37,440 nucleotides of DNA from a virus (lineage: Duplodnaviria; Heunggongvirae; Uroviricota; Caudoviricetes), in the IMG/VR virus record IMGVR_UViG_2541047705_000012. One strand, 5' to 3'. The notes beneath the pieces are model-generated. The model was not told where the DNA came from. It worked only from the letters and a program-made list of their open reading frames with translations, and made no database searches. The position numbers were made by a program, and so were the translations under genes. Shown in pieces: positions 1 through 37,113 of this stretch. Every line of letters begins with the position of its first letter. The stretch's first letter is position 1.

Positions 1-26
1 GGTAGATCTCCCTGACAAAAGCAGGA

Positions 27-2284: not shown

Positions 2285-2287
2285 GGA

Positions 2288-4336: not shown

Positions 4337-4881
4337 GCCTCCATCGCTTTATCAGGTTTGTCGGTGTTACTGCCCTGACCGTTCTCTCTGTGACGATGCC
4401 CGTTATAGGCAAGCCGCATCGCTGACATGGTGGTGCCGCTGGAGTCGCACAGGTCTTTCACCTGTCCTGTCACTTCCAGGTCCATTTCAAAACGTGCTTC
4501 AGGTGCATTGCGAAACGTGATCGTTTTACCTGCACCGTCCACCACGATCCCCTCCCGGGTCAGCGTCACAGACTGCCCCTGATCGTCATAGACCGCCACC
4601 TCACCCGTCTGCAGCCCTTTCAGGCGGTAGCGCCGGTCCGACACCGTAACAACCACCGCATGAGAACGGTCACCATCCGGAAACAACACCACCGCTTCCG
4701 CACCGCTGTTTGCCCTTGCGGTAAAACCGTAGGGTTCAAGATGTTCAACCCCGGCTTTGGGTTCACCGGCAATCAGGGACACATCCACGGTCTGACATTT
4801 CGTGGCGGCACTGATGCTTTTCACCACTGCCCGCCCAATCAGGCCGAGGAGTTGTCGCTGCATGGCTTCAATCGTACTCAT
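4333..4881 (-). CDS. Baseplate assembly protein V / spike (Mu gp45-like)
   Basis: 182-aa ORF; position and size in the Mu-like baseplate module. Confidence 0.7.
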   Translation of the reverse strand: MSTIEAMQRQLLGLIGRAVVKSISAATKCQTVDVSLIAGEPKAGVEHLEPYGFTARANSGAEAVVLFPDGDRSHAVVVTVSDRRYRLKGLQTGEVAVYDDQGQSVTLTREGIVVDGAGKTITFRNAPEARFEMDLEVTGQVKDLCDSSGTTMSAMRLAYNGHRHRENGQGSNTDKPDKAMEA

Positions 4882-7327: not shown

Positions 7328-7345
7328 TAACAGATTAATTTTTCA

Positions 7346-9181
7346 TTACCTGCCAAAGCGCGTATAGCCAACATCATGGCTGACATCAAAACCGCTGGAT
7401 CGCGTTTCCATAACCCGCATACCCGGAGGTGAATTCACAAAAGAGACCTTGATCTCACCATCAACTTTTGGCGCAGAAGCTTTGTTAATCATGAAGGGAT
7501 TCGGGCCTGTGGCACCGGAGGCGTTGTTTGACTGAGCCGGATCCACCGCCTGATAAGGTGTGTATCCCCGTGCCGGTATTCCCGTCCCATAAGCATCATA
7601 AGCACCCGCGCCCCACTGCGCAGAGTTAATGGCATCGACCGTGTCACCGGAACTGTCGGTAAACCACTCAATAATTGGCTTCAGCTTGTCCCACATATCC
7701 TGAAACCACTTAACAACCGGTCCCCAGTTATTGATTACCATCCCCAGCGGCGACCAGGCAAAAACCTTCTTCAGAAGTTCCCGGCCAGCCTCAAAATAAG
7801 GACCAATGGTTTCCCAGAGCTTCTTGAAATAAGGTCCGACAACATCCCAGTTAGTGATAATTAATCCCGCAGCCAGGGCTATCGCCGTCGCAATCATGCC
7901 AATCGGCGTCATCGACATGATCCTGCTGACAATACTGATGGCACCGCCAACGCCCATCAATCCCAGTTTCAGAATCGCAAGACCGGCAGCAAGCCCGACG
8001 ACGCCGCGAATAACCCGGGGATTTTCATCCGCAAACTTCGTGAATTTCTCCCCCAACTCCCCCAGCCATTGCGTGATATTTTTAGCGTCACCAGAAAATG
8101 CGCCGCCAATAGCCGCAAGGCCGTTAGTTGCGGTCCCTGTCATTGCCTCCCACAGGTTGGACAGCGTACCAAGCTGTGCCTGAACACGTTTATTCAGACT
8201 GGCCTGTTTATTCATCTTCTGCTGGATCTGGTCGTAGCCATCCTTTCCTTTATCGATTAGTGCATTGACCACCTGAAGGGTTTCGGCATCATCACCAAAT
8301 ATTGCCTTAAGTACACCAGTTCGCTTAACGTCGGTCAGTTTTCGCAGCTTTGCCAGTTGCCTGAACATGTTATCAAGACCGCCAAAACTCCCTTTGCCGT
8401 CAGTAAAATCGAGCTGTACCCCGAGTTTCTGGCGGGCCATGACTTTATTGACGTCCCTGATTTTCTTAACGCTTAATCCGGACTGGATAACTTTTCGCAG
8501 GGCGTTACCTGCCGACTCCCCGTTCATCCCCATCTGATCCATCATGACGCTGATGGGGGCAAGGCTCTGTGCAGCCTGAAGACCGTCCTTGTTCACCATC
8601 TTCAGAACAGAGCTGGTTTTAGTGAAGAAGGACAACATGTTGGTATCGTCAACGCCCAGATAAAACGCCTTCTGGATAGTGTCGAACAGCCCCATCATGT
8701 CTTCTGACGCCGTTCCGGTAGCATCCTGCATCTTTGCGGCAAACTCGGCAGCCGCTTCCGGTGTTTTTTTCAGTTGTACCGCAAGATAAGCTGTCGCTTT
8801 ACCCACACCGCCAAGAATGTTTTCTGCCGGGATCCCCTGACGCACCAGCATCTGCATCATGTTCTGGAAATCAGCCGTTGTACCGGGTAGCTGGTTACCC
8901 AGACCAATAGCCAGTTTATTGATGTCCTGAAAGCGCTTTCCGACCTCACCGTTCGCATCCATCATGGCAACTTTCAGCCCGGTGGCGGCGTTTTCCTGAT
9001 CGGCATAAGATTTCAGGGAAAGCGTCAGACCCGCAGCCAGTCCGCCACCAAGCGCCAGCCCACCCTGTGACGCTTCTTCCGCCTGGCGTTTAAATCCCCG
9101 GATTTTCTTTTGCATTTTCGACAGCGCGGGAGAAAGCCTGTCGACACCGGTGATCAACGCCTTAAGCTCAAATTCAGCCAT
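7346..9181 (-). CDS. Tail tape measure protein
   Basis: 611-aa ORF, Ala/Gly-rich with a C-terminal hydrophobic region, located after the frameshifted chaperone pair. Confidence 0.85.
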   Translation of the reverse strand: MAEFELKALITGVDRLSPALSKMQKKIRGFKRQAEEASQGGLALGGGLAAGLTLSLKSYADQENAATGLKVAMMDANGEVGKRFQDINKLAIGLGNQLPGTTADFQNMMQMLVRQGIPAENILGGVGKATAYLAVQLKKTPEAAAEFAAKMQDATGTASEDMMGLFDTIQKAFYLGVDDTNMLSFFTKTSSVLKMVNKDGLQAAQSLAPISVMMDQMGMNGESAGNALRKVIQSGLSVKKIRDVNKVMARQKLGVQLDFTDGKGSFGGLDNMFRQLAKLRKLTDVKRTGVLKAIFGDDAETLQVVNALIDKGKDGYDQIQQKMNKQASLNKRVQAQLGTLSNLWEAMTGTATNGLAAIGGAFSGDAKNITQWLGELGEKFTKFADENPRVIRGVVGLAAGLAILKLGLMGVGGAISIVSRIMSMTPIGMIATAIALAAGLIITNWDVVGPYFKKLWETIGPYFEAGRELLKKVFAWSPLGMVINNWGPVVKWFQDMWDKLKPIIEWFTDSSGDTVDAINSAQWGAGAYDAYGTGIPARGYTPYQAVDPAQSNNASGATGPNPFMINKASAPKVDGEIKVSFVNSPPGMRVMETRSSGFDVSHDVGYTRFGR

Positions 9182-9356
9182 GTGTGCGTTTCTCCTGCTC
9201 TATCCTGTTTGCCTGACTGACCAGCAAGGGAATTTCACTGATCGGCATATTCAGCAATTCGAAGGGATTAATGCGCCAGTAGCTGGCGCAGTCAAAGAAG
9301 CGATCAGTGAGGTATTCAGCCGTCAGGCCTGGAGGAAAAAACCAGCCACAAGCCAC
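9174..9356 (-). CDS. Minus-1 frame extension of the tail assembly chaperone (fusion product analogous to lambda G/GT or P2 E/E+E-prime)
   Basis: ORF in the -1 frame overlapping the 3-prime end of the chaperone gene and ending at the tape measure start; slippery T TTT TTC at 9335-9341. Confidence 0.55.
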   Translation of the reverse strand: MACGWFFPPGLTAEYLTDRFFDCASYWRINPFELLNMPISEIPLLVSQANRIEQEKRTHG

Positions 9357-9592
9357 GCCGCAGCATTCAGGTCTGCCGGAGACATCTGGTCGACAGAGTT
9401 TTGCGGCACTTTCGCCAGCCGCACAATGTATTTCGATACCACATGCGCCAGAAGTCTGACGGACTCATCCTGATTCATCTGGTAGGGATACCCCAGCTCG
9501 CGGACATCTTTCCCGGTGGGCTCATCAAACTCCAGTACGGAGAGTGTCTCGCCATGAGCGGTAATCGGTTTCTTTAACTCAAGCTCTTTCAT
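9323..9592 (-). CDS. Tail assembly chaperone
   Basis: 89-aa acidic ORF between the tube and tape measure genes. Confidence 0.65.
   Translation of the reverse strand: MKELELKKPITAHGETLSVLEFDEPTGKDVRELGYPYQMNQDESVRLLAHVVSKYIVRLAKVPQNSVDQMSPADLNAAAWLVAGFFLQA
9335..9341 (-). other. Programmed -1 ribosomal frameshift slippery heptamer (T TTT TTC)
   Basis: Run of six T on the minus strand 12 nt before the chaperone stop; a -1 slip gives ...AGFF-PPGLTAEY..., continuous with ORF 9174-9356. Confidence 0.5.
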
Positions 9593-9948
9593 TACTGGTA
9601 ATCCCCTTCTTCACCGTGGAACTCAAGATCAACCGTCCCTTCTTCGGCATTATGGTTCGCTTCGCCGTGCAGCCAGGCAGACGACAGTACATAGACCTGA
9701 CCGTTCGCCAGCTCGGCAGTGATGGTCATCTCATCAGACGAGGTGATTTTGCTCACCGGAAAATTCTTCGGCACCTTGAAGGTCCCTTTAACATAAGGCG
9801 CACGGTGAGTTTCCTTGCGGTCCACTGAACCGTCCAGGCCGATGATGTCATCATTGACCGTCCTGTTCATGGGCACCTCAATGCCGCCGGTCAGCGATAG
9901 CTGCTGACCGTCAATTTTGAAATAACAGGTTCCCCCGATACGGGCCAT
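9592..9948 (-). CDS. Tail tube protein (Mu gpM-like)
   Basis: 118-aa ORF immediately downstream of the sheath gene. Confidence 0.7.
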   Translation of the reverse strand: MARIGGTCYFKIDGQQLSLTGGIEVPMNRTVNDDIIGLDGSVDRKETHRAPYVKGTFKVPKNFPVSKITSSDEMTITAELANGQVYVLSSAWLHGEANHNAEEGTVDLEFHGEEGDYQ

Positions 9949-11444
9949 TATGCGGACTCCTCTGAATACTGAAGACGGAACTGGTTAACCACGGCAAAGA
10001 CACGCAACTGGTTAACATAGTCAGGCGGGAACAGCGTGTTCAGGCGGTTCGGATCGCTGGCATCACGCTCCACAACCAGGTACTGCTTAAAAAGTTCGTA
10101 GTTTTCCACGATCCCCGCACGCTCAAGCTGACGGTAGGTTGCCAGCAGTTCCCCTTTGATCACCGCCGGGGTGACAATCGCCTGACCGGGACCAAAGCGG
10201 GTACCGTCGCTGGCAAGCTTGTGACGCCCGTACTTACTGGTAATGACGGATTTCAGTTTGCGCAGTACATACGCACTGGTATGCAGCGTCTCGCTGTCGA
10301 GGTAGCTGTTATCCGCAACCCCGTAAGCGTTTTTCCTGTACGTGGTGACATCACGCTGAATGCGCAGTACCCCGCTTTCGACATACGCCGTTGCCACGCC
10401 ATGAGACAGCAGGGTCTTTTGTTCGGTCATCGTGAACCGTTTCCCCTTCGGCGCAGGCAGCATACCCACCAGCTCACCGGTCTGCGTGGGACGTGCCGGA
10501 TCGTTGCGGATAAACACCGCTGCGCGGGCGGTACGGCTTGCCGCCAGCTCGTCGGCAGGCGTCTGGGTGTCTTTTTCGTACCCCGCCAGGGTAATGTGCT
10601 GCTGGTTAAACTGGTCACCTGCGGTCACCAGTTCTGACAGCGTGCCGGTCTTTGCCGTATACACATGACCATACAGCTGACGCGCATAGCTCCAGCGACC
10701 GCTGGTATCGTTCATCTCGGTCACCAGCGTGTTAACGGAGGCCGTGTCGTTGAACGGCAGGCCGATATAATCAAACGGCTCATCCGCCATTGCAGCCACA
10801 GCGCCGGTGAGAACCGGAGCACCCGTTCCGGCGGTACCCGTCACCACGGCAATCTGTACGCCCGCTGGCAGCACTTCGCCCCCACCAAAGCCGTAGTAAT
10901 TGAGGCTGACAGGAATTTCATTCCCGCAAAGCCCCTTATGACGCGCGGTCAGTGTGACCACGCCTGCCGAAGATGAAGCCGTAAACGGCAGGGTCGGAAC
11001 GGCATTGATGGCATCCTGGATACTGCTGGCAATCATCGTAACGTTATCGCCGTTAGTCACCGGTACCTGCACGCGGGTACGTCCCACATACACATTCACC
11101 GTGCCGGTTTCGGTTGCCGCCCCGGTCACCGTCAGCGTAACCGTTGCCGCCGCGCCTGTGGATTCAGGAACGGCAATCACATACAGCTCGCCAAACGGGT
11201 CAGTCTGGCGATAAGCCTCGACCATACGCGCCAGCTGACTTCCCGCACCACAAATCTGGCGTGCATAGTCTGCCGACGGCATCAGTACCAGACTGTTGGC
11301 AACAATCTCTGCACCGTTATTGGCATGACCAATCAGCAGCGATGCTCCGCTGTCCTGTGCAGTATTCGCAGCCTGGTTATCCATTTCCGCATAAAACAGC
11401 GGAACCAGCGTATTCGACGGAATGGTGTTAAAGCTTATCGTCAT
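9948..11444 (-). CDS. Contractile tail sheath protein
   Basis: 498-aa ORF followed by tube, chaperone and tape measure. Confidence 0.85.
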   Translation of the reverse strand: MTISFNTIPSNTLVPLFYAEMDNQAANTAQDSGASLLIGHANNGAEIVANSLVLMPSADYARQICGAGSQLARMVEAYRQTDPFGELYVIAVPESTGAAATVTLTVTGAATETGTVNVYVGRTRVQVPVTNGDNVTMIASSIQDAINAVPTLPFTASSSAGVVTLTARHKGLCGNEIPVSLNYYGFGGGEVLPAGVQIAVVTGTAGTGAPVLTGAVAAMADEPFDYIGLPFNDTASVNTLVTEMNDTSGRWSYARQLYGHVYTAKTGTLSELVTAGDQFNQQHITLAGYEKDTQTPADELAASRTARAAVFIRNDPARPTQTGELVGMLPAPKGKRFTMTEQKTLLSHGVATAYVESGVLRIQRDVTTYRKNAYGVADNSYLDSETLHTSAYVLRKLKSVITSKYGRHKLASDGTRFGPGQAIVTPAVIKGELLATYRQLERAGIVENYELFKQYLVVERDASDPNRLNTLFPPDYVNQLRVFAVVNQFRLQYSEESA

Positions 11445-11598
11445 CGGTGTTCACCTTTTTATTCACGCGCCGGATATCACCCGCTGCTTCACGGCGCAGC
11501 CAGTAGTTGTTCTCATCAACATTTCGCCCTTCGGCGGGCAAAAGGTCGCCGCGGGCAGGGTCAGGCACTGACCGCCCTTTAACAGGTTTCACAAACAT
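11428..11598 (-). CDS. Small conserved phage protein upstream of the sheath gene (DUF2635-like); absent from the ORF track because it is under 60 aa
   Basis: 56-codon ORF (MFVKPVKGRSVPDPARGDLLPAEGRNV...); GAGGA ribosome-binding site 5 nt upstream of the ATG at 11598; overlaps the sheath start. Confidence 0.45.
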   Translation of the reverse strand: MFVKPVKGRSVPDPARGDLLPAEGRNVDENNYWLRREAAGDIRRVNKKVNTDDDKL

Positions 11599-11606
11599 GA
11601 TGATCC

Positions 11607-12167
11607 TCAGGAAGGAAGGGGTATTTCGGTGTGATGTTCGATATCGCCGTCAGACCCGTTACCGGGATCGAGATAATCAACATCAATCGCCAGCGTTCGC
11701 AGTTCATCCAGACTGTTCAGGTCATCCTGCTGGCGGGTATCGTCTTCGGTCAGCTCTCTGATGACCGAAAAATCGAACTGATAAATCAGCTCATGACGAT
11801 TCAGATCCAGCAGCGTGCCGCCGTCATAGGTAATCGGGTTACCGCACGCTTCCGGGTTCCAGCCCAGCAGGGCCTTAAAGAGCATCTGCCGGACATCGTC
11901 CACCACATCATACGAGGCAAACTGACCGCGCTCATCACGTCCGTTACTCAGTATGACAACCACGGAGAAGCCCTCTTTCAGCTCCTGCCAGTAGTCGGTC
12001 TGGCTTTTGTTTTCTCCCGGAGAGTCATCACCCGGTACCACATATGCCGCCGGGAGTCTCAGCTTTCCGACCTCCGGCAGATTTTTGAACTGTGCCGCGC
12101 CTGCCACCCGGTTTTCAAAATACGGGCAGCGGGCACGCAGCGCAGCAATAACAGGCGTCAGTTTCAT
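11607..12167 (-). CDS. Tail completion / virion protein (Mu gp37-like)
   Basis: 186-aa ORF between the neck genes and the sheath; family assignment tentative. Confidence 0.45.
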   Translation of the reverse strand: MKLTPVIAALRARCPYFENRVAGAAQFKNLPEVGKLRLPAAYVVPGDDSPGENKSQTDYWQELKEGFSVVVILSNGRDERGQFASYDVVDDVRQMLFKALLGWNPEACGNPITYDGGTLLDLNRHELIYQFDFSVIRELTEDDTRQQDDLNSLDELRTLAIDVDYLDPGNGSDGDIEHHTEIPLPS

Positions 12168-12670
12168 CTGCGTCGTCGCTCCGGCTTCAGTGATTTACGT
12201 AATTCCCGCGCCAGAAAATAGCGTGTCCAGCTGCGGTTCTTTTCAAGCGTTTCCACCATAAAGTTATTACGTGGAGCCAGTCGCCAGCCGCTGCCACCGG
12301 ATGCACCACGATGATGGCTGCGACGACGCTTTGCCCCTCGCCTCACGCCATAGAACAAAAAAGCCGGATAAAAATCACCGGTGATACGGCGGTTTCCCTC
12401 TCCATTACGCTGGTTAGGGGCTATACGTGCCATAAAACCAGGGCGATGTTTACTGGCTCTGGGTACCATGTAACCAATCGAACGAGCCAGGCGTCCGGTC
12501 TGATAACCGGGGTTTTCACCCGGTGCCGACCGCGCACGGCGCATCACCAGCCGACGGGCATCACGCATATGACGCTGACCAATCGTGACAAACGCCCGCC
12601 GGACACGGGCGCGGTTAAAGCGCATCTCCGCGGGCTGCTGAAAATCAACGTGCAAAAAGGAAGTCGTCAT
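12164..12670 (-). CDS. Neck / head-tail joining protein (HK97 gp10-like, putative)
   Basis: 168-aa Arg-rich ORF in the head-tail joining block. Confidence 0.4.
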   Translation of the reverse strand: MTTSFLHVDFQQPAEMRFNRARVRRAFVTIGQRHMRDARRLVMRRARSAPGENPGYQTGRLARSIGYMVPRASKHRPGFMARIAPNQRNGEGNRRITGDFYPAFLFYGVRRGAKRRRSHHRGASGGSGWRLAPRNNFMVETLEKNRSWTRYFLARELRKSLKPERRRR

Positions 12671-13627: not shown

Positions 13628-14833
13628 TTACGCCGCTGCAATCTTCAGCAGTTTGATGGCCTGCGAATCGACCAGCATCCCGCCGGTGCGCTTGGTGGTA
13701 TAAAAACCGACAAACGGTTTATTGGTGTACGGGTCACGCAGAATGCGGGTGCCGATACGGTCAACGATGGTGTAACCCCGTTTGAAGTTACCAAATGCAA
13801 TGGCTTTCGCATCAGCGGCGATATCCGGCATCTGTTCGTTTTCAGCGATACCGTAACCCGCCAGAGAGGACGGCTGCCCCAGTTCCAGCCCCGGACGCCA
13901 CAGATAGTTACCCTCGCTGTCTTTAAGCAGACGGATGGCAAACAGGCTGTTGTTGTTCATCATGAACTTCGCGCCAGTGCGGTGTGCCTTACGCAGCGTG
14001 TAAATCAGTTTGATAATGGCGTCTGCGGTCACCGCCGTCGCTTCGCCGGATACAATATGCTGAAGTTTGCCGAACGCCCGGACCTTATCGGTTTCATCAG
14101 TGGATTCATACGCCAGGAACCCTTTCGGCTTCTTGGTACCATCGCCGGTGGTAAAGGCAATTTCTTCCTGTTCGGCAAATTCGGTTGCCAGCTCGCTGTT
14201 GATCCATGCTTCCACGTTGAAAAAGGCATCATCCAGCATTTTCTGGGTGGCCTGCGGGTTACCGTAGATTTCCCCCATGAAAGGTTCAATCAGGCCCAGT
14301 TTTGAGGTGGCAGTCTGGGAGCGCGCGTCAGTCTCGCCAACCCATCCGGAAGCCGTGCCGCCCAGATTCACCAGTTTTTTGTAGTCGGAACCACCAACGG
14401 TGATCACCGTGGCTTCCTGGCGCATCACCACTTCATCTTTCAGCAGGGTGAGAATGTTGCGATCCAGTGCTTCCGGCACGGCATAGCCGCCGTCTTCATC
14501 GGTGCCTACCTGCAATGCCTTGCGCTCCAGATCGCGCAGACCATCTTCACGGCCTTTACGCAGGAAGCCCACAAACGCTTCTTTATGCTCGGTGGCCAGT
14601 TTATTTTGCGCACCACCTGCCGGACGTTTCAGCTCAAGCAGCTCTTTTTCAAGATCGCTTTTGAGGTTTTCCAGCTCGCTGAGTTTCCCGTTCAGGGTTT
14701 CCACCTGCCCGGCAAGTTTGCCTTTTTCCTGCTCAATCGCATCCACGCGCTTGTCGTTCTTTGCTTTGAAGTCGTCAAACTTCTGCTGCAGCTCCTGCGC
14801 GACCTGTTCGACATCTTTAATATCAACCGCCAT
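13628..14833 (-). CDS. Major capsid protein (HK97 fold) with N-terminal coiled-coil delta domain
   Basis: 401-aa ORF; N-terminal heptad-rich region, then a capsid-like body; follows the prohead protease. Confidence 0.9.
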   Translation of the reverse strand: MAVDIKDVEQVAQELQQKFDDFKAKNDKRVDAIEQEKGKLAGQVETLNGKLSELENLKSDLEKELLELKRPAGGAQNKLATEHKEAFVGFLRKGREDGLRDLERKALQVGTDEDGGYAVPEALDRNILTLLKDEVVMRQEATVITVGGSDYKKLVNLGGTASGWVGETDARSQTATSKLGLIEPFMGEIYGNPQATQKMLDDAFFNVEAWINSELATEFAEQEEIAFTTGDGTKKPKGFLAYESTDETDKVRAFGKLQHIVSGEATAVTADAIIKLIYTLRKAHRTGAKFMMNNNSLFAIRLLKDSEGNYLWRPGLELGQPSSLAGYGIAENEQMPDIAADAKAIAFGNFKRGYTIVDRIGTRILRDPYTNKPFVGFYTTKRTGGMLVDSQAIKLLKIAAA

Positions 14834-28771: not shown

Positions 28772-28972
28772 CTAATCTTTCGGATAGATATCCGGTCTTA
28801 AGTCAGATTTCGTAATTGCACCTGACGTGCATTGCTCAAGTTTTTTAGCCAGCACAAAACTGGCTTTTTTATAGCCATTGAAAACCAGCCGTAAGTAGCC
28901 AGGTGTTGAGCCAACTTTTCCGGCCAACTCGCCCTGCTGTTCTTTGGTTAAAGAGTCCCAATACGCTTTCAT
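28772..28972 (-). CDS. cro: Cro-like repressor (YdaS/Cro family HTH)
   Basis: Divergent from cI; start chosen at the ATG at 28972 (GGAGG upstream), giving 66 aa; C-terminus has an RPDI motif recalled from YdaS-family proteins. Confidence 0.6.
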   Translation of the reverse strand: MKAYWDSLTKEQQGELAGKVGSTPGYLRLVFNGYKKASFVLAKKLEQCTSGAITKSDLRPDIYPKD

Positions 28973-28978
28973 ACAATG

Positions 28979-29056
28979 TGTACCTCCAGTGTACATATTA
29001 CATGATTGAAATGAACCTTCAAGATACTTGTACCTTAACGGTACAAGGGTTTTAAT
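28979..29056. promoter_or_regulatory. Right operator/promoter region: divergent pR (cro) and pRM (cI) with two GTAC-type palindromic operators
   Basis: Palindromes TGTACctccagTGTACA (28979-28995) and CTTGTACCttaacGGTACAAG (29027-29047). pR on the minus strand: -35 TTGAAG (29017-29022), -10 TAATAT (28995-29000). pRM on the plus strand: -35 TTGTAC (29028-29033), -10 TTTAAT (29051-29056), ending 7 nt before the cI ATG, so cI may be leaderless. Confidence 0.45.
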
Positions 29057-29062
29057 TTCGTT

Positions 29063-29737
29063 ATGAAAACAATCCATGACATCCGGCGGTCTAACGCCAG
29101 AAAACTGAGAGATGGTGTTGGCGGGAATTCTTCCTTTGCCACTATGATTGATCGCGAGCCAACCCAGACCAGCAGGTTTATGGGAGATGGTGCTACTAAA
29201 AATATCGGTGACAGCATGGCACGACACATCGAAAAATGTTTCGACCTGCCTGTCGGATGGCTCGATCAAGAACACCAGACAACGAACATCACAAAAAAAC
29301 CTGATGTTTCAATCACTAATAAACAAATCACATTAGTCCCTGTCATATCATGGGTACAGGCCGGAGCATGGAAAGAAGTTGGATATTCTGAGGTTGATTT
29401 GAGCACAGCAGAAACGTATCCCTGCCCTGTACCCTGTGGGGAAATGACTTATATCTTGCGGGTGATAGGTGATTCAATGATTGATGAGTACCGCCCGGGA
29501 GACATGATTTTTGTCGATCCTGAAGTACCTGCCTGCCACGGTGACGACGTTATTGCATTGATGCACGATACAGGTGAAACCACCTTCAAAAGGTTGATAG
29601 AAGATGGGACACAGCGTTATCTCAAAGCGTTAAACCCAAACTGGCCTGAGCCTTACATTAAGATCAACGGTAATTGCTCTATAATTGGTACTGTGATTTT
29701 CTCAGGAAAACCAAGAAGATACAAAATCAAAGCCTAA
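29063..29737 (+). CDS. cI: CI-type repressor (N-terminal HTH, C-terminal S24 LexA-like autopeptidase domain)
   Basis: 224-aa ORF with the S24 serine motif (VIGDSM) and a downstream Lys; divergent from cro-like. Confidence 0.85.
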   Translation: MKTIHDIRRSNARKLRDGVGGNSSFATMIDREPTQTSRFMGDGATKNIGDSMARHIEKCFDLPVGWLDQEHQTTNITKKPDVSITNKQITLVPVISWVQAGAWKEVGYSEVDLSTAETYPCPVPCGEMTYILRVIGDSMIDEYRPGDMIFVDPEVPACHGDDVIALMHDTGETTFKRLIEDGTQRYLKALNPNWPEPYIKINGNCSIIGTVIFSGKPRRYKIKA

Positions 29738-29749
29738 TCAATGTTTATG

Positions 29750-29773
29750 AACCTGCTTCGGCAGGTTTTTTTA
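29750..29773 (+). terminator. Intrinsic terminator after cI
   Basis: Stem AACCTGC/GCAGGTT with loop TTCG followed by TTTTTTT. Confidence 0.7.
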
Positions 29774-29887
29774 TACTTGACAATGTACCTTTGGGATACA
29801 TAATGTACCCAAGAGAAACAACAAACAGGCAGGACGCCCACGAAGTAGCCGCCTGGGGCATATGAAGTCCAGGATGATTCGTTAGCA

Positions 29888-29912
29888 ACAAAAAAGCGCC
29901 CTATAGGACGCT
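29888..29912 (-). terminator. Intrinsic terminator after the minus-strand gene 29940-30452
   Basis: Hairpin GCGTCCTATAGGGCGC followed by TTTTTTGTTGC on the minus strand. Confidence 0.55.
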
Positions 29913-29939
29913 TCGCTCTTTAACAATCTGGATGACTTA

Positions 29940-30452
29940 TTACTCAGATTTGAACTTTGGTTCTGGCAAAAGAGGAGGAGTTGAGTCCTCGAATCGTAGC
30001 CAGTGCTCCCAGATATCGTGGGATTGTAATTCCAGAAGACCAATTTGACGTGATGCAACTGCAGTGCCAGCTATAGTTCCTCCTGCATAATCAACCTGGA
30101 CGGACTTTGACGCTTTCTCAATTAATTCTGTCCAAGCTTCACTTTCCGCGTTAAAAGAAGCAGTTAATTCCTGCAGACGCTGTGGATCATCCTTGTTGTC
30201 TTGTTTCAAACGATTCAGGGCGGCCACCGAATACTTATTCTTAACCCAACTAACCTGAGCTAACTGAACTCTCTGACAAGCGTCCATATCAGTAGTTGTT
30301 TCCTGAGGCATATCAAAGCAGGAAATAAAAAAAGTCTCAACACCATCATTTAGACTACTGCTCGGCTGGTTCAAAGCATCAGAAGCATTGGATGCTATCG
30401 GTATTATCAGTGCTACCGACAGAATCAAACGTTTAACATAAATCGCTCCCAT
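29940..30452 (-). CDS. Secreted/periplasmic protein with N-terminal signal peptide; weak resemblance to the DUF1311/LprI family is a guess
   Basis: 170-aa ORF convergent with cI, with its own terminator; hydrophobic N-terminus (LILSVALIIPIASNA). Confidence 0.45.
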   Translation of the reverse strand: MGAIYVKRLILSVALIIPIASNASDALNQPSSSLNDGVETFFISCFDMPQETTTDMDACQRVQLAQVSWVKNKYSVAALNRLKQDNKDDPQRLQELTASFNAESEAWTELIEKASKSVQVDYAGGTIAGTAVASRQIGLLELQSHDIWEHWLRFEDSTPPLLPEPKFKSE

Positions 30453-30739
30453 TTAATTATCCCCTCTAAGAACAGAGTCATCCAGATTAGCCGAATCCTT
30501 GTTGTTGGGGAATAACCAGGCCCACCTCGCCTGATGTGGCTAAAAGCAGGCACATAACAGCTAAGTATTTTCAACCAGAGAGAATCCTTAGCGTTGTGGT
30601 GAATGCGGCTCAGCGCACGCGGGTTAAGGTTGAGGCTGACAGTCGACCTTCTGTGGATACCCACCCGCCTGGTGTGCAACCTTCGCCAGGCACCGGGAGG
30701 CACCCGGCACCACAACTTTATGCTGTGTGTAGTCCTGGC

Positions 30740-30871
30740 GGTACCAGCTTGTACCCTTGCTTCCGGCTGGTACCGCTCTTTTTACAAAACAGAGAAGAGC
30801 ATCACCGGACGACGGGCTCATAACCCAATCCACCCGGGCGGCTGCCACCGCAGGTGTTCTTCTCTGTTTTG
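30740..30871 (+). promoter_or_regulatory. Early-left control region: GTAC-type operator-like palindrome, boxA-like motif and a large stem-loop
   Basis: GGTACCAGCTTGTACC (30740-30755); CGCTCTTTTTA (30774-30784); perfect 14-bp stem CAAAACAGAGAAGA (30785-30798) pairing with TCTTCTCTGTTTTG (30858-30871) around a GC-rich 59-nt loop. No N-like ORF is present. Confidence 0.4.
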
Positions 30872-30920
30872 TGGAGAAACCAACCGACCTTGCAGGGTCG
30901 ATATGATGAGGAGCAGCAAA

Positions 30921-31283
30921 ATGGCTAGCGAACGCAGTACCAACGTGCAGGAATTTATCGGGGAGCTGGACGGCGGCGTATTTGAAACCAAAATCGGCGC
31001 AGTTCTCAGTGAAGTCGCTTCCGGTGTGATGAACACGAAAACCAAAGGTAAGGTCTCGCTCAACCTGGAAATCGAACCGTTTGATGAGAACCGTGTGAAA
31101 ATAAAACACAAACTCTCATATGTTCGTCCGACTAACCGCGGGAAAATTTCCGAAGAAGACACCACCGAAACGCCGATGTATGTCAATCGCGGTGGTCGCC
31201 TGACTATTCTGCAGGAAGACCAGGGACAATTACTGACTCTTGCCGGTGAACCTGACGGAAAACTCCGCGCAGCAGGTCATTAA
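30921..31283 (+). CDS. Hypothetical early-left protein (recalled as YfdP-like)
   Basis: 120-aa product from the internal ATG at 30921 (GAGGAG 7 nt upstream); the long upstream extension of ORF 30603-31283 runs through the regulatory region and is rejected. Confidence 0.5.
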   Translation: MASERSTNVQEFIGELDGGVFETKIGAVLSEVASGVMNTKTKGKVSLNLEIEPFDENRVKIKHKLSYVRPTNRGKISEEDTTETPMYVNRGGRLTILQEDQGQLLTLAGEPDGKLRAAGH

Positions 31284-31348
31284 TATCGTTCTTAATTAAC
31301 TGATTATTTATCTCATCACTGAATATCTTTATATAGTGAGGACTTATT

Positions 31349-32173
31349 ATGTCTCAGAACTTAGACGCAACCGCAATTAATCAAATCCATGCCCTTATTT
31401 CTGCTCAGGGTGTTAATGAAATTATCAGTAAGATTGGTGCCGATGCTGTGGCATTGCCTGAGAATTTCCGCATTCATGATCTGGAAAAATTTAATTTAAA
31501 TCGCTTCCGTTTCCGTGGTGCGCTTTCCACTGCCAGCATCGATGACTTTACCCGTTATTCTAAAGATCTTGCGGATGAAGGCACCCGCTGCTTTATCGAT
31601 GCCGATAATATGCGTGCCGTCAGTGTGCTTAACCTGGGTACTATTGATGAGCCTGGTCACGCAGATAACACCGCCACTCTCAAACTGAAAAAGACAGCAC
31701 CGTTCTCTGCTCTGTTGTCTGTTAACGGCGAGCGTAACTCCCAGAAGTCACTGGCAGAATGGATTGAAGACTGGGCCGACTACCTTGTGGGCTTTGATGC
31801 TAATGGTGATGCCATTCAGGCAACAAAAGCGGCTGCGGCAGTCCGTAAAATCACGATTGAAGCAAACCAGACCGCTGATTTTGAAGACAATGACTTCAGC
31901 GGCAAACGCTCCCTGATGGAGTCTGTCGAAGCGAAGACCAAAGATATTATGCCAGTGGCATTTGAATTTAAATGCGTTCCGTTTGAAGGCCTGAAAGAAC
32001 GTCCGTTTAAATTACGCCTCAGCATTATCACTGGCGATCGTCCTGTACTGGTTCTGCGCATTATTCAGCTGGAAGCAGTGCAGGAAGAAATGGCTAACGA
32101 ATTTCGTGATCTGCTTGTTGAGAAATTCAAGGACAGCAAAGTAGAAACCTTTATTGGTACTTTTACCGCCTGA
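31349..32173 (+). CDS. DUF2303-family protein (recalled as YfdQ-like)
   Basis: 274-aa ORF with a ribosome-binding site; family assignment from memory. Confidence 0.5.
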
Positions 32174-32185
32174 TTTCATTACTGC

Positions 32186-32207
32186 AAATGCCCCTGCGGG
32201 GGCATTT
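32186..32207 (+). terminator. Perfect palindromic hairpin between the yfdQ-like and yfdR-like genes (possible terminator or attenuator)
   Basis: AAATGCCCC-TGCG-GGGGCATTT, 13 nt after the stop codon. Confidence 0.35.
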
Positions 32208-32300
32208 ATGGAAACGTAATTGACTCAATAATCGCCGGATGGTGAGGGCTTTCTTTTACCAGAATTCAGCGCGGTGCAGCGCATATACGTGGAGAACAAA

Positions 32301-32825
32301 ATGTCATTTATTAAAACTTTTTCCGGGAAGCATTTTTATTATGACAGGATAAATAAAGACGACATCGTTATTAACGATATCGCGGTTTCTCTTTCAAATA
32401 TCTGTCGCTTTGCAGGACATCTTTCACATTTCTACAGCGTCGCCCAACATGCGGTGCTTTGCAGCCAACTGGTACCGCAGGAATTTGCTTTTGAAGCGTT
32501 AATGCATGATGCAACAGAAGCGTATTGCCAGGACATCCCGGCGCCACTGAAACGCCTTCTTCCTGACTATAAACGGATGGAAGAAAAAATAGACGCCGTA
32601 ATCCGTGAGAAATACGGGTTACCCCCGGTTATGAGTACGCCCGTGAAATATGCCGATCTCATCATGCTGGCAACCGAACGCCGCGATCTCGGGCTTGATG
32701 ATGGCTCTTTCTGGCCCGTACTGGAAGGTATCCCGGCAACAGAGATGTTCAAAGTTATTCCACTGTCGCCAGGCCATACCTATGGGATGTTTATGGAACG
32801 CTTTAAAGAGTTAACTGAGTCGTAA
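32301..32825 (+). CDS. HD-domain phosphohydrolase (YfdR-like 5-prime-deoxynucleotidase)
   Basis: H...HD metal-binding motif (VAQHAVLCSQ...ALMHDATEAY); start at the ATG at 32301 (GGAG 6 nt upstream). Confidence 0.65.
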   Translation: MSFIKTFSGKHFYYDRINKDDIVINDIAVSLSNICRFAGHLSHFYSVAQHAVLCSQLVPQEFAFEALMHDATEAYCQDIPAPLKRLLPDYKRMEEKIDAVIREKYGLPPVMSTPVKYADLIMLATERRDLGLDDGSFWPVLEGIPATEMFKVIPLSPGHTYGMFMERFKELTES

Positions 32826-32933
32826 AAATCAGCACGTACGAATTCAAACTCTGCCATAAAAGAACATATAAGTAATTTATTAACATATAGATATAGGTTA
32901 TATTACAAATTGAAAAATTATTGGAGAGCAACA

Positions 32934-33800
32934 ATGAATCAAAATCCATTCTCATTCTATGACTTTCTTGGATATTTAATACCAGGTGGTTTTTTTATCC
33001 TATTAATGTATTTCTGTGGTTTGACATTCGATCTAGATATTGTTATTGACTTAAGTGAATTGCTCAGAGGTCAAAGTCAAATCTTTGGCATTTTGAACTA
33101 CGCTTCAATAGTTATTATATCTTATATAGCTGGACATTTTATTTCTATCACGTCAGCATTTTTTATCGAAAAATACATGAATAAAGAATTAGGATATCCT
33201 TCCAAATATCTATTTAAAAAATTGATAGATACCTCAGAAAGCATTTGTAGCCCATCATGCGATGAGAGAAGCGCTGATAAAAAAACAAAAATAAAGAATC
33301 GCATAATCAAATGCGTATTATGTCCAATAATACTATGGGATTTTATAACACAAAAACTATGTTATTCTCAATCTCTACCATTTCATTTAGCTAATACAAC
33401 ATGGTTAATGATCAAAGAAGGTTATGAGAAAAAGTTCATAACAAATCGCCAATTATTACAAGATAAAAACGGACTTGATGATGATCTCTTCAGATTGGCA
33501 TATCATTATGTTTATGAGTTTTCAAAACAACATCAAACAAAAATTCAAAACTATGTTGCATTATATGGTTTTTGCAGAAACATATGTTTAATCTTTATAA
33601 TTTCATTTTGGGTATCAGTTCCAACCTTTATTTATCGATTATGTACTCATAGTGATTATCTTTATAGTTTACTTTCAATAATGCTTAGCTTTTTCTTCGT
33701 CTATGTTTTCTATGTTGGTTTTGTTAAATTTTATAGAAGATATACTTTAGAAGTATTAATGGCATTTGCTGTACTTCAAAGTAACGACACTATTCGTTAA
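32934..33800 (+). CDS. Low-GC integral membrane protein (two N-terminal and two C-terminal predicted transmembrane helices around a ~130-aa soluble domain); candidate superinfection-exclusion or abortive-infection gene
   Basis: Start at the ATG at 32934 (GGAG 7 nt upstream); own AT-rich promoter-like sequence (-10 TATATT at 32899-32904); no family recognised. Confidence 0.5.
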   Translation: MNQNPFSFYDFLGYLIPGGFFILLMYFCGLTFDLDIVIDLSELLRGQSQIFGILNYASIVIISYIAGHFISITSAFFIEKYMNKELGYPSKYLFKKLIDTSESICSPSCDERSADKKTKIKNRIIKCVLCPIILWDFITQKLCYSQSLPFHLANTTWLMIKEGYEKKFITNRQLLQDKNGLDDDLFRLAYHYVYEFSKQHQTKIQNYVALYGFCRNICLIFIISFWVSVPTFIYRLCTHSDYLYSLLSIMLSFFFVYVFYVGFVKFYRRYTLEVLMAFAVLQSNDTIR

Positions 33801-33841
33801 TAATGTTGCTCCCGTGTGCAGACGGGATAATGGAGAAACGT

Positions 33842-34048
33842 ATGCTGAACCTCGATTGTGTTCCTATCTCAACTTATTGCAAAGAAACTGGCGAAACTCC
33901 TGAAGCAATAAACAAACGTGTACAGCGCGGTGTTTGGCGTGAAGGTGTTCAGGTTTTAAAGGTTGAAGGCGTTAAGGAGAGGTGGATTGATCTTAGTGAG
34001 GTTGCAAAATGGGCCAGACAAAACTGCTCAAACTACCGCGCGGCGTAA
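33842..34048 (+). CDS. xis: Excisionase-like small DNA-binding protein
   Basis: 68-aa product (GGAG 6 nt upstream of the ATG at 33842) immediately upstream of and overlapping the integrase start. Confidence 0.55.
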   Translation: MLNLDCVPISTYCKETGETPEAINKRVQRGVWREGVQVLKVEGVKERWIDLSEVAKWARQNCSNYRAA

Positions 34049-34209
34049 CAATCAGGAAACACCACCAGGGAGAAACGATCAATATAACTTTCACCTACAA
34101 AGGAGTTAGATGTCGTGAGCCGCTTTCCAATCTGGAAGTAACACCAAAGAACATTAAATACGCCGAGTGAACCGCCCCGGGTTTCCTGGAGAGTGTTTTA
34201 TCTGTGAAC

Positions 34210-35100
34210 TCAGGCTGCCAGATCATCGTTTCCGATGGAAGCATAATAAGCTTTTTCTGCTTCTGCCGGAGGAGTATGGCCCAGCCTTTCCAGCAATCGT
34301 CGATTGTTATACCAGTCCACCCACGTGAGTGTGGCCAGTTCCACTTCTGCACGGTTTTTCCAGCTCTTACGGTGTATTACCTCCGCTTTGTAAAGACCAT
34401 TGATGCTCTCCGCCATCGCGTTGTCATACGAGTCGCCTGTACTTCCTGTTGATGCCAGTAATCCGGCTTCCTTAAGCCGCTGTGTGTAGGCCAGCGATAC
34501 ATACTGAGAACCTTTATCACTGTGATGGACCGTGCCGGACGGTCGACGGGCCCATAACGCCTGCTCCAGTGCATCCAGCACGAATGTCGTTTCCATGGAC
34601 GATGAGACCCGCCACCCCACGATGTATCCGGCAAACACATCAATGATGAACGCCACATAGACGAAGCCCCGCCATGTGCTGACGTAAGTAAAATCAGCCA
34701 CCCACAGCTGGTCAGGTCGTTCTGCCACGAACTGACGGTTTACGCGGTCGCCTGCGGCAACGGCTTTCCGGCTGATGGTCGTACGGACCTTTTTACCCCG
34801 GAGAACACCGGCAAGTCCCATAACCGCCATGAGACGTGCCACAGTGCATCTGGCCACTCTGATACCTTCCCGTAACAACTGACGCCAGACTTTACGCACA
34901 CCGTATACCTTGTGATTTTCATCGTATACGCGCTGTATCTCTTTCTTCAGCCAGTCATCGCGCTGCGCACGGGCACTGCGTTTATCCGGATGATGTCGCT
35001 GTTGCTGACAGTGGTAATACGTTGACGGGGCAATATGCAGTTCGCTGCATAGCGGTCCGACCCCGTACTGCTCACGCAGCTTATCCAGCAGTGGCATCAT
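34210..35100 (-). CDS. IS3-family transposase OrfB (DDE integrase domain)
   Basis: 296-aa ORF in the -1 frame relative to orfA, starting within the A-run at the orfA 3-prime end. Confidence 0.85.
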
Positions 35101-35423
35101 TTTTTCCAGAGGCGGTCGAACTCCGCCTTCGCAAAATAAGCGGAAGCCTGGCGAAGGATATCGTTACTGCGGCGCAGTTCACGATTTTCACGTTCCAGCT
35201 CTTTCAGACGCTGACGTTCAGCGGTGGTGAGCCCTCCATCACCGCCCCCGGTATCCCGCTCATGCTGGCGAACCCAGACACGCAGAGTCTCCGGCGTACA
35301 GCCAATCTTTGGAGCAATGGAACAAATTGTCGCCCATTGTGAGTCATATTCGCTCTGACTTTCCAGAACCATACGGACTGCCCGTTGACGGACTTCGGGG
35401 GAAAAACGAGTATTTTTAGTCAT
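35097..35423 (-). CDS. IS3-family transposase OrfA (HTH and leucine zipper)
   Basis: 108-aa ORF ending in WKK at an AAAAAA run, typical of the OrfA/OrfB frameshift window. Confidence 0.85.
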
Positions 35424-36485
35424 CCTGTTTACCTCTTTCTCAGGAAGTTTAGTCTCCAGGATTCCCGGGGCGGTTCAGAGCGTACACTCGGCGAAATCCA
35501 TAATAAGATCGAAAGGGGAACATTCATTTATGCAGAATATTTTCCCCGTTCTGCTCGTTTGAAAATTTTTGGTAATGCTGCTGCAAGCAAAACGGTAAAG
35601 ATGTACCTGGACGAATATCTTGAAATCTGCGAAACAAGAAAACTTTCACCCTCTACGATTGGTGGCTATAAAAAATGCCGTAGTGCGTTAGCCTCACTTC
35701 ACATTTGCCCTGCAAGTGAATTAACACCAGCAACCCTGAAAGCGTGGATTCAAAGCCAGAAAACAACCTTAAAAACCATTCGCAACCAGTTATCTTTCCT
35801 ACGGTCAGCACTTGATGAAGCCGTGACCGATGGGGTACTTCAAATTAACCCCGTATCGTTAGTAACAGCTTCGCGCTACCAAAGTGATAAGTCAGAAGCA
35901 GAAAGCAGCTATGTGGTTGATCCGCTATCACCAGCAGAAGTTGATGCATTACTAGCAGCAGCCGGAAACAAACAATGGGAAAATCTGTTCCGGTTCGCCA
36001 TACATACAGGCCTGCGTAGTTCTGAATTATGTGCCCTACGATGGCATGATATCGACTTTGTTGGAAAAACAGCCCATGTTCAGAGCGCAAGTGTTGTCGG
36101 AGTTATCAAAGGAACAAAGACAAAAGCCGGTACCCGTAAAGTTGAACTGACTGAAGAAGCAATGTTGGCGTTGATAAACCAGAAGCCATTTACATTCATG
36201 AAGGATGCTACTGTCTTTGAAGATCCAAAGACCAATAAACCCTGGGCAAGTGCTGATGCAATTAGGAAAAAAGCATGGGTGCCAACATTGCGAAAAGCAG
36301 GTATTCGTTACAGAAACCCATATCAAACCAGGCATACATTCGCCACCAGCCATATCAGCCGGGGAGCAAACCTGTTTTGGCTTGCGGCTCAAATGGGCCA
36401 TAAAGGGCCTGAAATGTTATTCAGGCACTATGGACAATACTTGAAAGAGTATGATGGGAGGGCAAGTATCAAGGATAAAAAGGCT

Positions 36486-37103
36486 TTATTTTAAGTCATT
36501 ATGCCAATCGTCTACTGTTTGAAACCAAATTTTTAACCTTTGCATAAAGGTACGATCCTTTTTGGGAGGGTGGTACCTTTGAAAAGAAGTATGTAACGCT
36601 TCGATAACTCCCATACAAGCATCAATTACTTCTTGTGCTTTAACCGGGCGATCGGCATCTGAAAGCTTGTGAGCGACCTCACAATCCAGAGTTGCTTTCT
36701 CTAGTACAGATGAGAACACCTCGTCAGGTATATACAGTCCTCTGCTTTCCAAAATGCAAATCAGTTTGGAAACTTGTTGAGCTTTAGCCAAGATAGTTAA
36801 CAAGTATGAAACAGAAGCCTTTGTTCTATCCTTTTGCAACCTTAACAATCGATGCTTTGATGCTCTAATTTTAGGTTGAGTTGTCTGACTGAGCCAATAG
36901 TTAGAAGAAATATCAGAAATTTCAATAACTAACTTTGAAATAGCATCAATAATTGATTTCGATTCAGAACGTGTCGCCAGTTTTACAGAATTATTGTACG
37001 CAACTCGCCATCCAATGAAAACTAAGCAGACGCTAACTACTGTGATACACCACGAATACTGTCCTATTTGTGCTACTAATGACATTGGTTCCGTACTGAT
37101 CAA
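36486..37103 (-). CDS. Hypothetical protein with N-terminal transmembrane anchor
   Basis: 205-aa ORF with a TTG start (AAGAGG 6 nt upstream), 10 nt after the upstream stop; convergent with and overlapping the integrase 3-prime end by 9 nt. Confidence 0.4.
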   Translation of the reverse strand: MISTEPMSLVAQIGQYSWCITVVSVCLVFIGWRVAYNNSVKLATRSESKSIIDAISKLVIEISDISSNYWLSQTTQPKIRASKHRLLRLQKDRTKASVSYLLTILAKAQQVSKLICILESRGLYIPDEVFSSVLEKATLDCEVAHKLSDADRPVKAQEVIDACMGVIEALHTSFQRYHPPKKDRTFMQRLKIWFQTVDDWHNDLK

Positions 37104-37113
37104 CTATCGCCTC

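Follow-up and report, generated by a model that had tools for sequence, protein, structure and literature searches.

The locus considered here raises the question of whether a prophage integrase gene (int) has been split by an insertion sequence, and of what such a split would mean for the prophage that carries it. We analysed the whole 37,440-nucleotide stretch of viral DNA in IMG/VR record IMGVR_UViG_2541047705_000012 (hereafter the window), for which an earlier note had proposed an interrupted integrase and a probably excision-defective prophage. The source of the window is draft assembly GCA_000456505.1 (0 mismatches over 13.4 kb). The prophage concerned is ~43 kb in length, lies between ssrA and glaH, and resembles e14/SfV, its tail being Mu-like and its head HK97-like; the host is related to ExPEC strains of the ST95 type, UTI89 among them. 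GmrSD-like, DpnII/MboI-like and GIY-YIG genes were observed as prophage cargo, and PADLOC gave no hits for the genes lying between int and attR. The features of the locus are collected in Table 1.

Table 1. Features of the interrupted integrase locus, in window coordinates
Feature	Coordinates	Strand	Basis or remark
xis (excisionase), 68 aa, intact	33842..34048	+	PHROG 2917 'excisionase', E = 7.7e-44, full length
int 5' fragment, codons 1-53, with the N-terminal part of the arm-DNA-binding domain	34009..34167	+	Arm-DNA-bind_2 spans the break
Left target-site duplication GAG	34165..34167		Removal of one copy gives the intact allele exactly
Complete IS629 (IS3 family)	34168..35477	- (transposase genes)	Exactly 1310 bp; NCBIfam transpos_IS3, E = 1e-93
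IRR, terminal inverted repeat, orfB-distal end	34168..34192		TGAACCGCCCCGGGTTTCCTGGAGA; 14/14 perfect and 23/25 overall against the other end
IS629 orfB, 296 aa, DDE/rve catalytic domain	34210..35100	-	Pfam rve, E = 8.3e-28, and HTH_21; length of annotated IS629 OrfB
Programmed -1 frameshift signal, A6 run and ALIL pseudoknot	35026..35142	-	Rfam RF01497, full model
IS629 orfA, 108 aa, HTH_Tnp_1	35097..35423	-	PF01527, E = 7.4e-13; length of annotated IS629 OrfA
Artefactual ORF, 369 aa, TTG start	35385..36494	+	The IS covers its TTG and first 31 codons
IRL, terminal inverted repeat, upstream of orfA	35453..35477		Complementarity with IRR
Right target-site duplication GAG	35478..35480		Matches left copy
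int 3' fragment, codons 54-390 and stop	35481..36494	+	Remaining arm-binding, core-binding and catalytic domains (R232, R337/H338, H360, Y370)

The earlier note had described a 1310-bp IS3-family element with terminal repeats, and its boundaries, when re-derived from the sequence, were those of a complete IS629. The repeats held up on re-inspection: the termini (TGAACCGCCCCGGG and CCCGGGGCGGTTCA) were perfectly complementary over 14 of 14 positions and at 23 of the first 25 bp, and the 5'-TG...CA-3' ends and the length are those of the IS3 family (~1.2-1.55 kb). The coding content is likewise that of the family, with an orfA carrying an HTH domain, an orfB carrying a DDE/rve domain and -1 frameshifting between them. 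Specifically, orfB overlaps orfA in the -1 frame, the A6 run of the frameshift signal (TGGAAAAAATGATG) lies at 35100-35105 (plus-strand coordinates), and the ALIL pseudoknot (RF01497) scored 120.2 bits relative to a gathering score of 50.

IS629, a mobile element common in E. coli, belongs to the IS3 family and has the isoforms IS1203 and IS3411. Assignment to IS629 was made at a threshold of ≥95% nucleotide identity (the ISfinder isoform convention), with the mobile element annotated 'IS3 family IS629' in LC567824.1 (an O157 Stx2a phage), rather than the ISfinder type sequence, as the reference; 1304 of 1310 positions were identical to this copy (99.5%, 6 differences). On this nucleotide comparison the identity is firm, and the label 'IS629-like' given earlier was if anything too cautious. 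Indeed, the window element shares with IS629 its 1310-bp length, TG...CA ends, 108-aa OrfA, 296-aa OrfB, -1 frameshift and 3-4 bp target duplication, and nothing substantive sets it apart, the O157 copy differing at six single positions. No differences were found from the copies in AF017626.1, E12053, E19019 (second copy) and AH20K059, and this complete identity across four other records indicates recent spread. Judging from its intact parts and the identical copies at other sites elsewhere, the window copy looks active, i.e., competent for transposition.

The element is flanked on both sides by GAG, as had been reported, and a duplication of 3 bp is the only one that fits at its borders, repeats of 2, 4 or more bp being mismatched. 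This lies within the published range for IS629 target duplications (3-4 bp; PMC3271280). A 3-bp repeat alone would arise by chance at a frequency of 1/64; chance is ruled out here because removal of the IS and one GAG exactly restored a known allele. Joining 34009..34167 (53 codons) to 35481..36494 gave an uninterrupted ORF of 1173 nt encoding 390 aa, identical at 1173 of 1173 nt to the UTI89 'site-specific integrase' gene (NC_007946.1 2939949..2941121, WP_000531794.1). The earlier proposal of an insertion after codon 53 of a ~390-aa tyrosine recombinase was thus borne out, as was the overlap of the restored frame with xis, which amounts to 40 nt.

The restored protein, a full-length tyrosine recombinase, contains three Pfam domains, namely Arm-DNA-bind_2 (PF12167, aa 10-77, E = 7.5e-24), SAM-like (aa 94-178) and Phage_integrase (PF00589, aa 202-372, E = 2.3e-16), and matches PHROG 1 'integrase' (E = 1.9e-63). 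Its closest solved relatives were Tn1549 Int for the catalytic domain (E = 1.3e-11) and lambda Int for the core-binding domain (E = 2.5e-5), with both of which it shares a three-domain architecture and an N-terminal arm-binding domain. It differs from these relatives in that its arm domain is of the Pfam Arm-DNA-bind_2 family. Of the catalytic set R, K, H-x-x-R, H/W and nucleophilic Y, alignment to Tn1549 Int pointed to R232, R337, H338, H360 and Y370 as the putative counterparts, but a tyrosine (Tyr334) takes the place of the first His in HxxR. In the window itself the arm-binding domain is not contiguous, being split at aa 53, and the 5' fragment ends at the TGA (34168-34170) with which the IS begins.

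The 369-aa ORF that was listed for the integrase begins 93 nt inside the IS, and we agree that it is an artefact: its TTG and 31 codons lie within the element, and its product had no match among the gene calls of public assemblies. The gene call for the int remnant in GCA_000456505.1 starts instead at an internal ATG (35601). Downstream of the IS the only in-frame restarts are codon 80 (TTG) and codon 94 (ATG), and no Shine-Dalgarno-like sequence was evident by eye upstream of either TTG 35385 or ATG 35601. Because the first start codons within the 3' fragment itself are codons 80 and 94, any product made from it would lack the arm-binding domain.

The neighbouring xis has the properties of an excisionase gene, being small, overlapping int and encoding a member of an excisionase family (PHROG 2917); the 68-aa protein had no Pfam or NCBIfam match. 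Its product is 100% identical to UTI89 WP_001331174.1, and the gene runs 40 nt into restored int, as annotated in UTI89. Proteins from ymfQ through xis, together with those of the two genes after int, were 100% identical to their UTI89 counterparts, with one at 99.7%, and both attL and attR, ~190-bp repeats containing the 3' end of ssrA, were present in GCA_000456505.1. With every other protein that was compared matching UTI89, and with the two att repeats in place, the break in int is the only lesion visible in the prophage sequence. Decay of the tail-fibre region (82-1975), which would have made the prophage defective in any case, was considered and rejected, as was perturbed sequence in that region: the two orientations of an invertible segment are mixed there base by base in the consensus, and the stops that seem to interrupt the tail fibre are an artefact of assembly. 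All relatives have in common a small ORF with a frameshift near yfdP and a tail-fibre invertase reduced to a 42-aa remnant.

We consider it very likely that IS629 transposed into int, splitting the arm domain and leaving the prophage locked but otherwise apparently functional. The element would have entered the gene by ordinary IS3-family transposition, generating the GAG duplication and dividing int between codons 53 and 54, within the arm-DNA-binding domain at the N terminus. Translation of the 5' piece would then terminate at once on the TGA supplied by the IS, and the 3' piece could yield only a product begun at codon 80 or 94 and devoid of the arm-binding domain. Lambda-type integrases depend on this domain to link arm sites with core sites in the intasome; according to established work on lambda Int, arm-less fragments cleave core sites but are unable to perform arm-dependent recombination, whether integrative or excisive. 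With the arm-binding domain lost, Int-dependent excision and re-integration should be lost as well, and the suggestion that the prophage is probably excision-defective unless complemented is a reasonable one. Genomes carrying this int have a median of 1 copy and a maximum of 3. As xis, the two att repeats and all of the lytic and structural genes are intact, the result would be a prophage locked in place. Read-through transcription might still yield an Int shortened to residues 80-390 or 94-390 and so devoid of its arm domain. Two further ways of escape, which the earlier note did not mention, may exist: the ~190-bp att repeats could recombine through RecA, giving rare loss of the prophage without Int, and precise excision of the IS would restore int.

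This account has to be weighed against three others. The source is a draft whose consensus is demonstrably artefactual in at least one other part of the prophage (82-1975), and one might suspect that the IS was misplaced in the scaffold and that the gene is really intact. We regard this as scarcely credible, as mis-joins do not create a perfect 3-bp duplication around a complete IS, and independent samples carry the same junction. The junction-specific 53-aa stub was recorded in GCA_000456505.1 and also on four other contigs, independent and from other samples, each of which stops exactly at ...GCCGAG; short-read assemblies break at repeats, so contig ends at this position are expected where an IS begins. 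The int::IS629 insertion is therefore no artefact of a single assembly. The exact junction of the window was absent from 5,426 complete RefSeq E. coli genomes.

That the truncated Int, or a fusion started within the IS, might still supply enough recombinase for excision with Xis is very unlikely in our estimation. The insertion leaves the core-binding and catalytic domains whole and the open frame does reach 93 nt into the IS, but the arm-binding domain is destroyed, arm-less lambda Int fragments lack arm-dependent recombination, and neither the TTG nor the internal ATG is preceded by a Shine-Dalgarno-like sequence that can be recognised by eye. Somewhat less improbable, though still unlikely, is that the prophage was already cryptic and that the break in int is neutral decay of no functional consequence. 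Sharing of the yfdP-proximal frameshift and the invertase remnant by all relatives is consistent with such a history, and a literature search for a description or induction of the ST95 ssrA prophage found nothing usable. However, everything that was compared, including the repressor, Cro-like, replication, lysis, head, tail and Xis proteins and the two att repeats, is intact and matches UTI89 exactly or almost exactly, the tail-fibre stops are an artefact, and int was in one piece in 396 of the 412 E. coli genomes carrying the gene. The locked but otherwise apparently functional prophage remains our preferred reading.

Partial int alleles numbered ~16 in all, five of which were characterised, and several proved to carry insertions of their own. 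In APEC E19019, IS629 lies at nt 601 of int in minus orientation with the duplication ATC, 442 bp further into the gene than in the window, and most of the prophage is deleted; in E12053 it lies at nt 740 in plus orientation with the duplication TTGT; in AH20K059 it abuts int at nt ~960 without a duplication and beside a 37-kb deletion. IMT5155 has an IS66-family insertion in the same gene. E19019, which at first seemed to match the window with 100% coverage and identity, was rejected as its source on account of the shifted IS and the deletion; the 100% figure came from separate BLAST pieces that had been joined. Removal of the IS and duplication from the E19019 and E12053 alleles gave the same intact int gene as in the window. 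E19019, E12053 and AH20K059 thus share with the window both the integrase allele and the IS, whereas their positions, orientations and duplications differ, which makes them events independent of the window allele.

Such recurrence might reflect selection for inactivation, an adaptive locking-in of a prophage with useful cargo that insertion bias and tolerance would be insufficient to explain. Four independent IS629 events (nt 159, 601, 740 and ~960) and one ISCro1 insertion (~nt 855) fall within a gene of 1.17 kb, uniform insertion would give a per-genome hit chance of only ~0.5% for 19-27 copies, and the prophage carries the GmrSD-like, DpnII/MboI-like and GIY-YIG cargo. Nevertheless, we consider selection doubtful. 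The genomes examined were chosen for a broken int, which introduces ascertainment bias; 62% of IS629 copies sit in prophages or prophage-like elements (PMC3271280), and given the ~five-fold preference for prophages published for IS629, three additional hits in ~128 genomes are only marginally unexpected (P ~0.04-0.19 at prophage-biased rates). Moreover, a broken int gives the host no protection from lytic induction, and most of the prophage was later deleted in E19019 and AH20K059, which fits decay better than retention. The wider proposal, that IS inactivation of int is convergent and selected in ST95-complex/APEC lineages, fixing a prophage with defence-type cargo in the chromosome as the opening step of a repeatable, IS-driven route to domestication (int::IS, a further IS, and finally deletion between the two IS copies with retention of the cargo at the ends), is in our view equally tentative and improbable. 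The recurrence is mildly interesting and the phenomenon itself is already known.

Similar interruptions occur in other prophages. In E. coli EC38 (AF017626.1), an IS identical at 1310 of 1310 positions lies inside the phage 21 integrase gene with a 3-bp duplication, TAT; there, in contrast to the window, the prophage is another one (integrated at icd) and the integrase gene is unrelated. Split integrases of this kind are already flagged as pseudogenes by annotation pipelines. In the Stx2c prophage of O157 strain 9000, IS629 lies in the excisionase gene, and a likely effect on induction was proposed (Shaaban et al. 2016, PMC5359411); both this insertion and that in the window hit the integration/excision module of a prophage, but the target in strain 9000 is xis rather than int, and the phage is a lambdoid Stx phage.

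The IS629-split integrase is a real but ordinary instance of a known phenomenon. Its recognition corrects an artefactual gene call and provides a lineage marker, as the int::IS629 junction is found in several draft assemblies and in none of the complete genomes. The hits in int form a small natural series, from the intact gene through int::IS to two IS copies and a 36-37-kb deletion, that can be used to ask whether the grounding of a prophage is neutral or selected. For the lineage carrying the window allele, the prediction is that an otherwise complete prophage can neither excise nor transfer from it as a lysogen-forming phage.

In silico removal of the IS together with one GAG, the decisive check of the earlier note's proposal that the prophage tyrosine integrase gene (int) is split by an insertion, joined 34009..34167 to 35481..36494 in a 1173-nt ORF encoding a 390-aa integrase. 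At every base, this restored gene was identical to the intact site-specific integrase gene of the reference strain UTI89 (NC_007946.1 2939949..2941121, WP_000531794.1). The restored protein matched PHROG 1 'integrase' (E = 1.9e-63), its nearest solved relatives were Tn1549 Int and lambda Int, and the break at residue 53 fell within its arm-binding domain. In the alignment to Tn1549 Int, residue 334 (window ~36321-36323) was a Tyr (PYQTRH) that, in this integrase family, replaces the first His of the conserved HxxR motif. Direct reading and scripted re-derivation both reproduced every coordinate that had been reported, and the proposed overlap of int with the excisionase gene xis was also borne out; the 68-aa gene matched an excisionase PHROG over its full length (E = 7.7e-44; no Pfam or NCBIfam model matched). 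The 369-aa ORF starting within the IS is a mechanical artefact, as had been suspected: no Shine-Dalgarno-like sequence was evident by eye before its TTG, and its product was absent from public gene calls.

Features of the split integrase, its surroundings and broken alleles in other strains (L001-L018, comparison stretches with their own coordinates; all other positions, window)
Feature	Location	Strand	Details
Very AT-rich gene (27-29% GC)	32934-33797	+	288 aa, hydrophobic-looking by eye; directly upstream of xis
xis	33842..34048	+	68 aa; 40-nt overlap with int
int 5' fragment	from 34009	+	53 codons; stop is TGA from the element's first three bases
GAG target duplication	34165-34167 and 35478-35480		directly outside each IS end
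IS629	34168..35477	transposase genes minus	exactly 1310 bp (sequence read and scripted re-derivation)
IS629 orfB	34210..35100	minus	296 aa; HTH_21 and rve DDE domain; -1 frame overlap with orfA
ALIL frameshift pseudoknot, full	35026..35142	minus	Rfam, 120 bits vs gathering score 50
IS629 orfA	35097..35423	minus	108 aa; Pfam HTH_Tnp_1
369-aa ORF	35385..36494	+	TTG start, 93 nt within IS
Arm-DNA-bind_2	restored int aa 10-77		E = 7.5e-24
SAM-like core-binding domain	restored int aa 94-178
Phage_integrase catalytic domain	restored int aa 202-372
199/205-aa protein, function unknown	36486-37103	minus	between int and attR
DUF4325 STAS-like protein	37114-37440	minus	between int and attR
303-aa protein, function unknown	L011 13437-14348	minus	between int and attR, beyond window
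attL-side cargo	L017 12509-14398 and 15450-17603		beyond window; GmrSD-type (DUF262), LEM-3-like GIY-YIG nuclease, DpnII/MboI-family protein
E19019 IS629	L001 7611-8920	minus	after int nt 601; duplication ATC
E12053 IS629	L004 4750-6059	plus	after int nt 740; duplication TTGT
AH20K059 IS629	L008 2689-3998		adjoining int at nt ~960
IMT5155 ISCro1 (IS66 family)	L006 ~4857-7554		near int nt 855

Judged by its sequence, the inserted element, described earlier as an IS629-like member of the IS3 family, is IS629, a name whose isoforms include IS1203 and IS3411 (PMC3271280). It was equal in length to the copy in LC567824.1 (labelled 'IS3 family IS629' by its depositors), from which it differed at 6/1310 positions, and identical copies were found in APEC E12053, APEC E19019 and AH20K059. 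Its termini, TGAACCGCCCCGGG and the reverse complement CCCGGGGCGGTTCA, were perfectly complementary over 14/14 positions and at 23/25 across the first 25 bp, and 3 bp was the only length that fitted the flanking duplication, upholding both the terminal repeats and the GAG duplication; IS629 duplications measure 3-4 bp (PMC3271280). The NCBIfam IS3-family transposase model matched orfB (E = 1e-93), and an A6 run, TGGAAAAAATGATG, lay within the orfA/orfB overlap. The element is complete and, by all sequence criteria, transposition-competent.

Lambda Int binds arm sites through its N-terminal domain, which is required for assembly of a recombinogenic intasome, and fragments without this domain keep core cleavage and lose arm-dependent recombination. 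Insertion of an IS3-family element with target duplication destroyed the corresponding arm-binding domain here, leaving Xis, the att repeats and the lytic genes intact. Because lambda Int requires this domain, Int-dependent excision and re-integration are predicted to be lost; the only in-frame restarts past the IS were codons 80 (TTG) and 94 (ATG), both after the Pfam arm-domain match. The lost function could be supplied in trans by another integrase encoded elsewhere in the genome (copies of this int per carrying genome: median 1, maximum 3), and precise excision of IS629 would restore int exactly.

The int break was the sole lesion visible in the prophage, which spans ~43 kb between ssrA and glaH, occupies the same site in UTI89, APEC O1, S88 and IHE3034, and has a contractile tail of the Mu-like kind, a head of HK97 type, and ymfK, ymfT and ymfL in its immunity region. 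Compared to UTI89, the proteins encoded from ymfQ through xis and by two genes past int were 100% identical, except one at 99.7%. Direct repeats of ~190 bp, which take in the final ~25 nt of ssrA and the terminator that follows it, bracket the prophage in UTI89 and in GCA_000456505.1, the draft assembly carrying the window's prophage, with both copies beyond the window; these could permit rare RecA-dependent prophage loss. The identity block is unusually long for att and sufficient for RecA-mediated loss; the repeats at the prophage ends (L017 reverse-complemented ~2320-2520; L011 ~14480-14700) shared ~93-95% identity, and in the attR copy the 3' end of ssrA was 5 nt short. The 288-aa protein encoded before xis matched PHROG 12528 (unknown function) and, weakly, PADLOC Csx27 (E = 1.4e-5), and its gene is probably a moron acquired from a foreign source. 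The three minus-strand genes between int and attR gave no PADLOC match; they were conserved in all relatives and kept even where the prophage core was deleted. The attL-side cargo genes are likely defence genes.

Window positions 82-1975 span the cassettes for the tail fibre and for tail-fibre assembly in an invertible segment. This interval showed ~64-66% identity to UTI89 with 0 indels, a flat substitution spectrum and sharp edges, every ORF within it contained stop codons, and no close match was found among complete genomes. Since 672 of the 680 differences from the UTI89 forward orientation were the inverted-orientation base, the interval is an artefact in which the consensus of the deposited draft assembly mixes the two orientations; this implies that the segment was inverting in the sequenced culture. 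The stop codons, being a product of this consensus, were rejected as a sign of a defective prophage. Of the adjoining invertase gene only a remnant of 42 aa is left, so an invertase likely acts on the segment in trans.

The 53-aa int stub served as a junction-specific marker of the window's allele. It was recorded in GCA_000456505.1 on scaffold KE699135.1, which showed 0 mismatches to the window over the compared stretches (1-12284 and 24009-37440), and on four contigs (three other assemblies and one metagenome), each terminating exactly at ...GCCGAG, as expected where short-read assembly breaks at a repeat. A fifth contig, from another metagenome, was set aside as evidence of insertion; it ends 2 bp beyond the insertion point and reads as an uninterrupted gene. 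The junction was found in 0/5,426 complete RefSeq E. coli genomes, and the single apparent full-length match, E19019, arose from joined BLAST pieces. Given these occurrences, the int::IS629 allele is real, lineage-inherited and uncommon.

Among 412 complete genomes carrying int, the gene was uninterrupted in 396, and five broken-int genomes were characterised among the remainder. Removal of the IS and duplication from E19019 and E12053 gave the same intact int in both. E19019 had lost ~36 kb of prophage beside a second IS629 (L001 2048-3357), and in AH20K059 the far side of IS629 was joined to the DinI region with loss of 37 kb; both IS629-bounded ~36-37-kb deletions spared the cargo genes at the prophage ends. 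In E12053 the GmrSD-like cargo gene contained another IS629, oriented as the int copy (L018 3635-4944 and 40684-41993), an arrangement that could give rise to an IS x IS deletion. In GPEC1054, a plasmid-borne relative of int was disrupted by IS256.

Including the window allele, four independent IS629 events were found in the 1.17-kb int; if insertion were uniform, the chance of int being struck would be ~0.5% in a genome with 19-27 copies. This recurrence possibly reflects selection to lock the prophage in; against this stands ascertainment, as the genomes examined were selected for a broken int. For three extra events among ~128 genomes with a ≥99%-identical allele, P was 0.0005 at a uniform rate and about 0.04-0.19 at prophage-biased rates; 62% of O157 IS629 copies lie in prophages or prophage-like elements (PMC3271280). 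Given this bias, the extra events are only marginally surprising, and the recurrence is in keeping with ordinary decay of prophages driven by IS elements.

Each of the three, IS, integrase and phenomenon, was already known. IS629 has been reported within prophage integration modules (PMC5359411), PGAP labels the sister alleles in E19019 and E12053 pseudogenes, and a 1997 GenBank record from strain EC38 (AF017626.1) already shows another prophage's integrase, that of phage 21, interrupted by an element identical to the window's IS. What goes beyond the routine case, by a small excess, is the convergence of insertions in int together with a visible series of stages in prophage decay.
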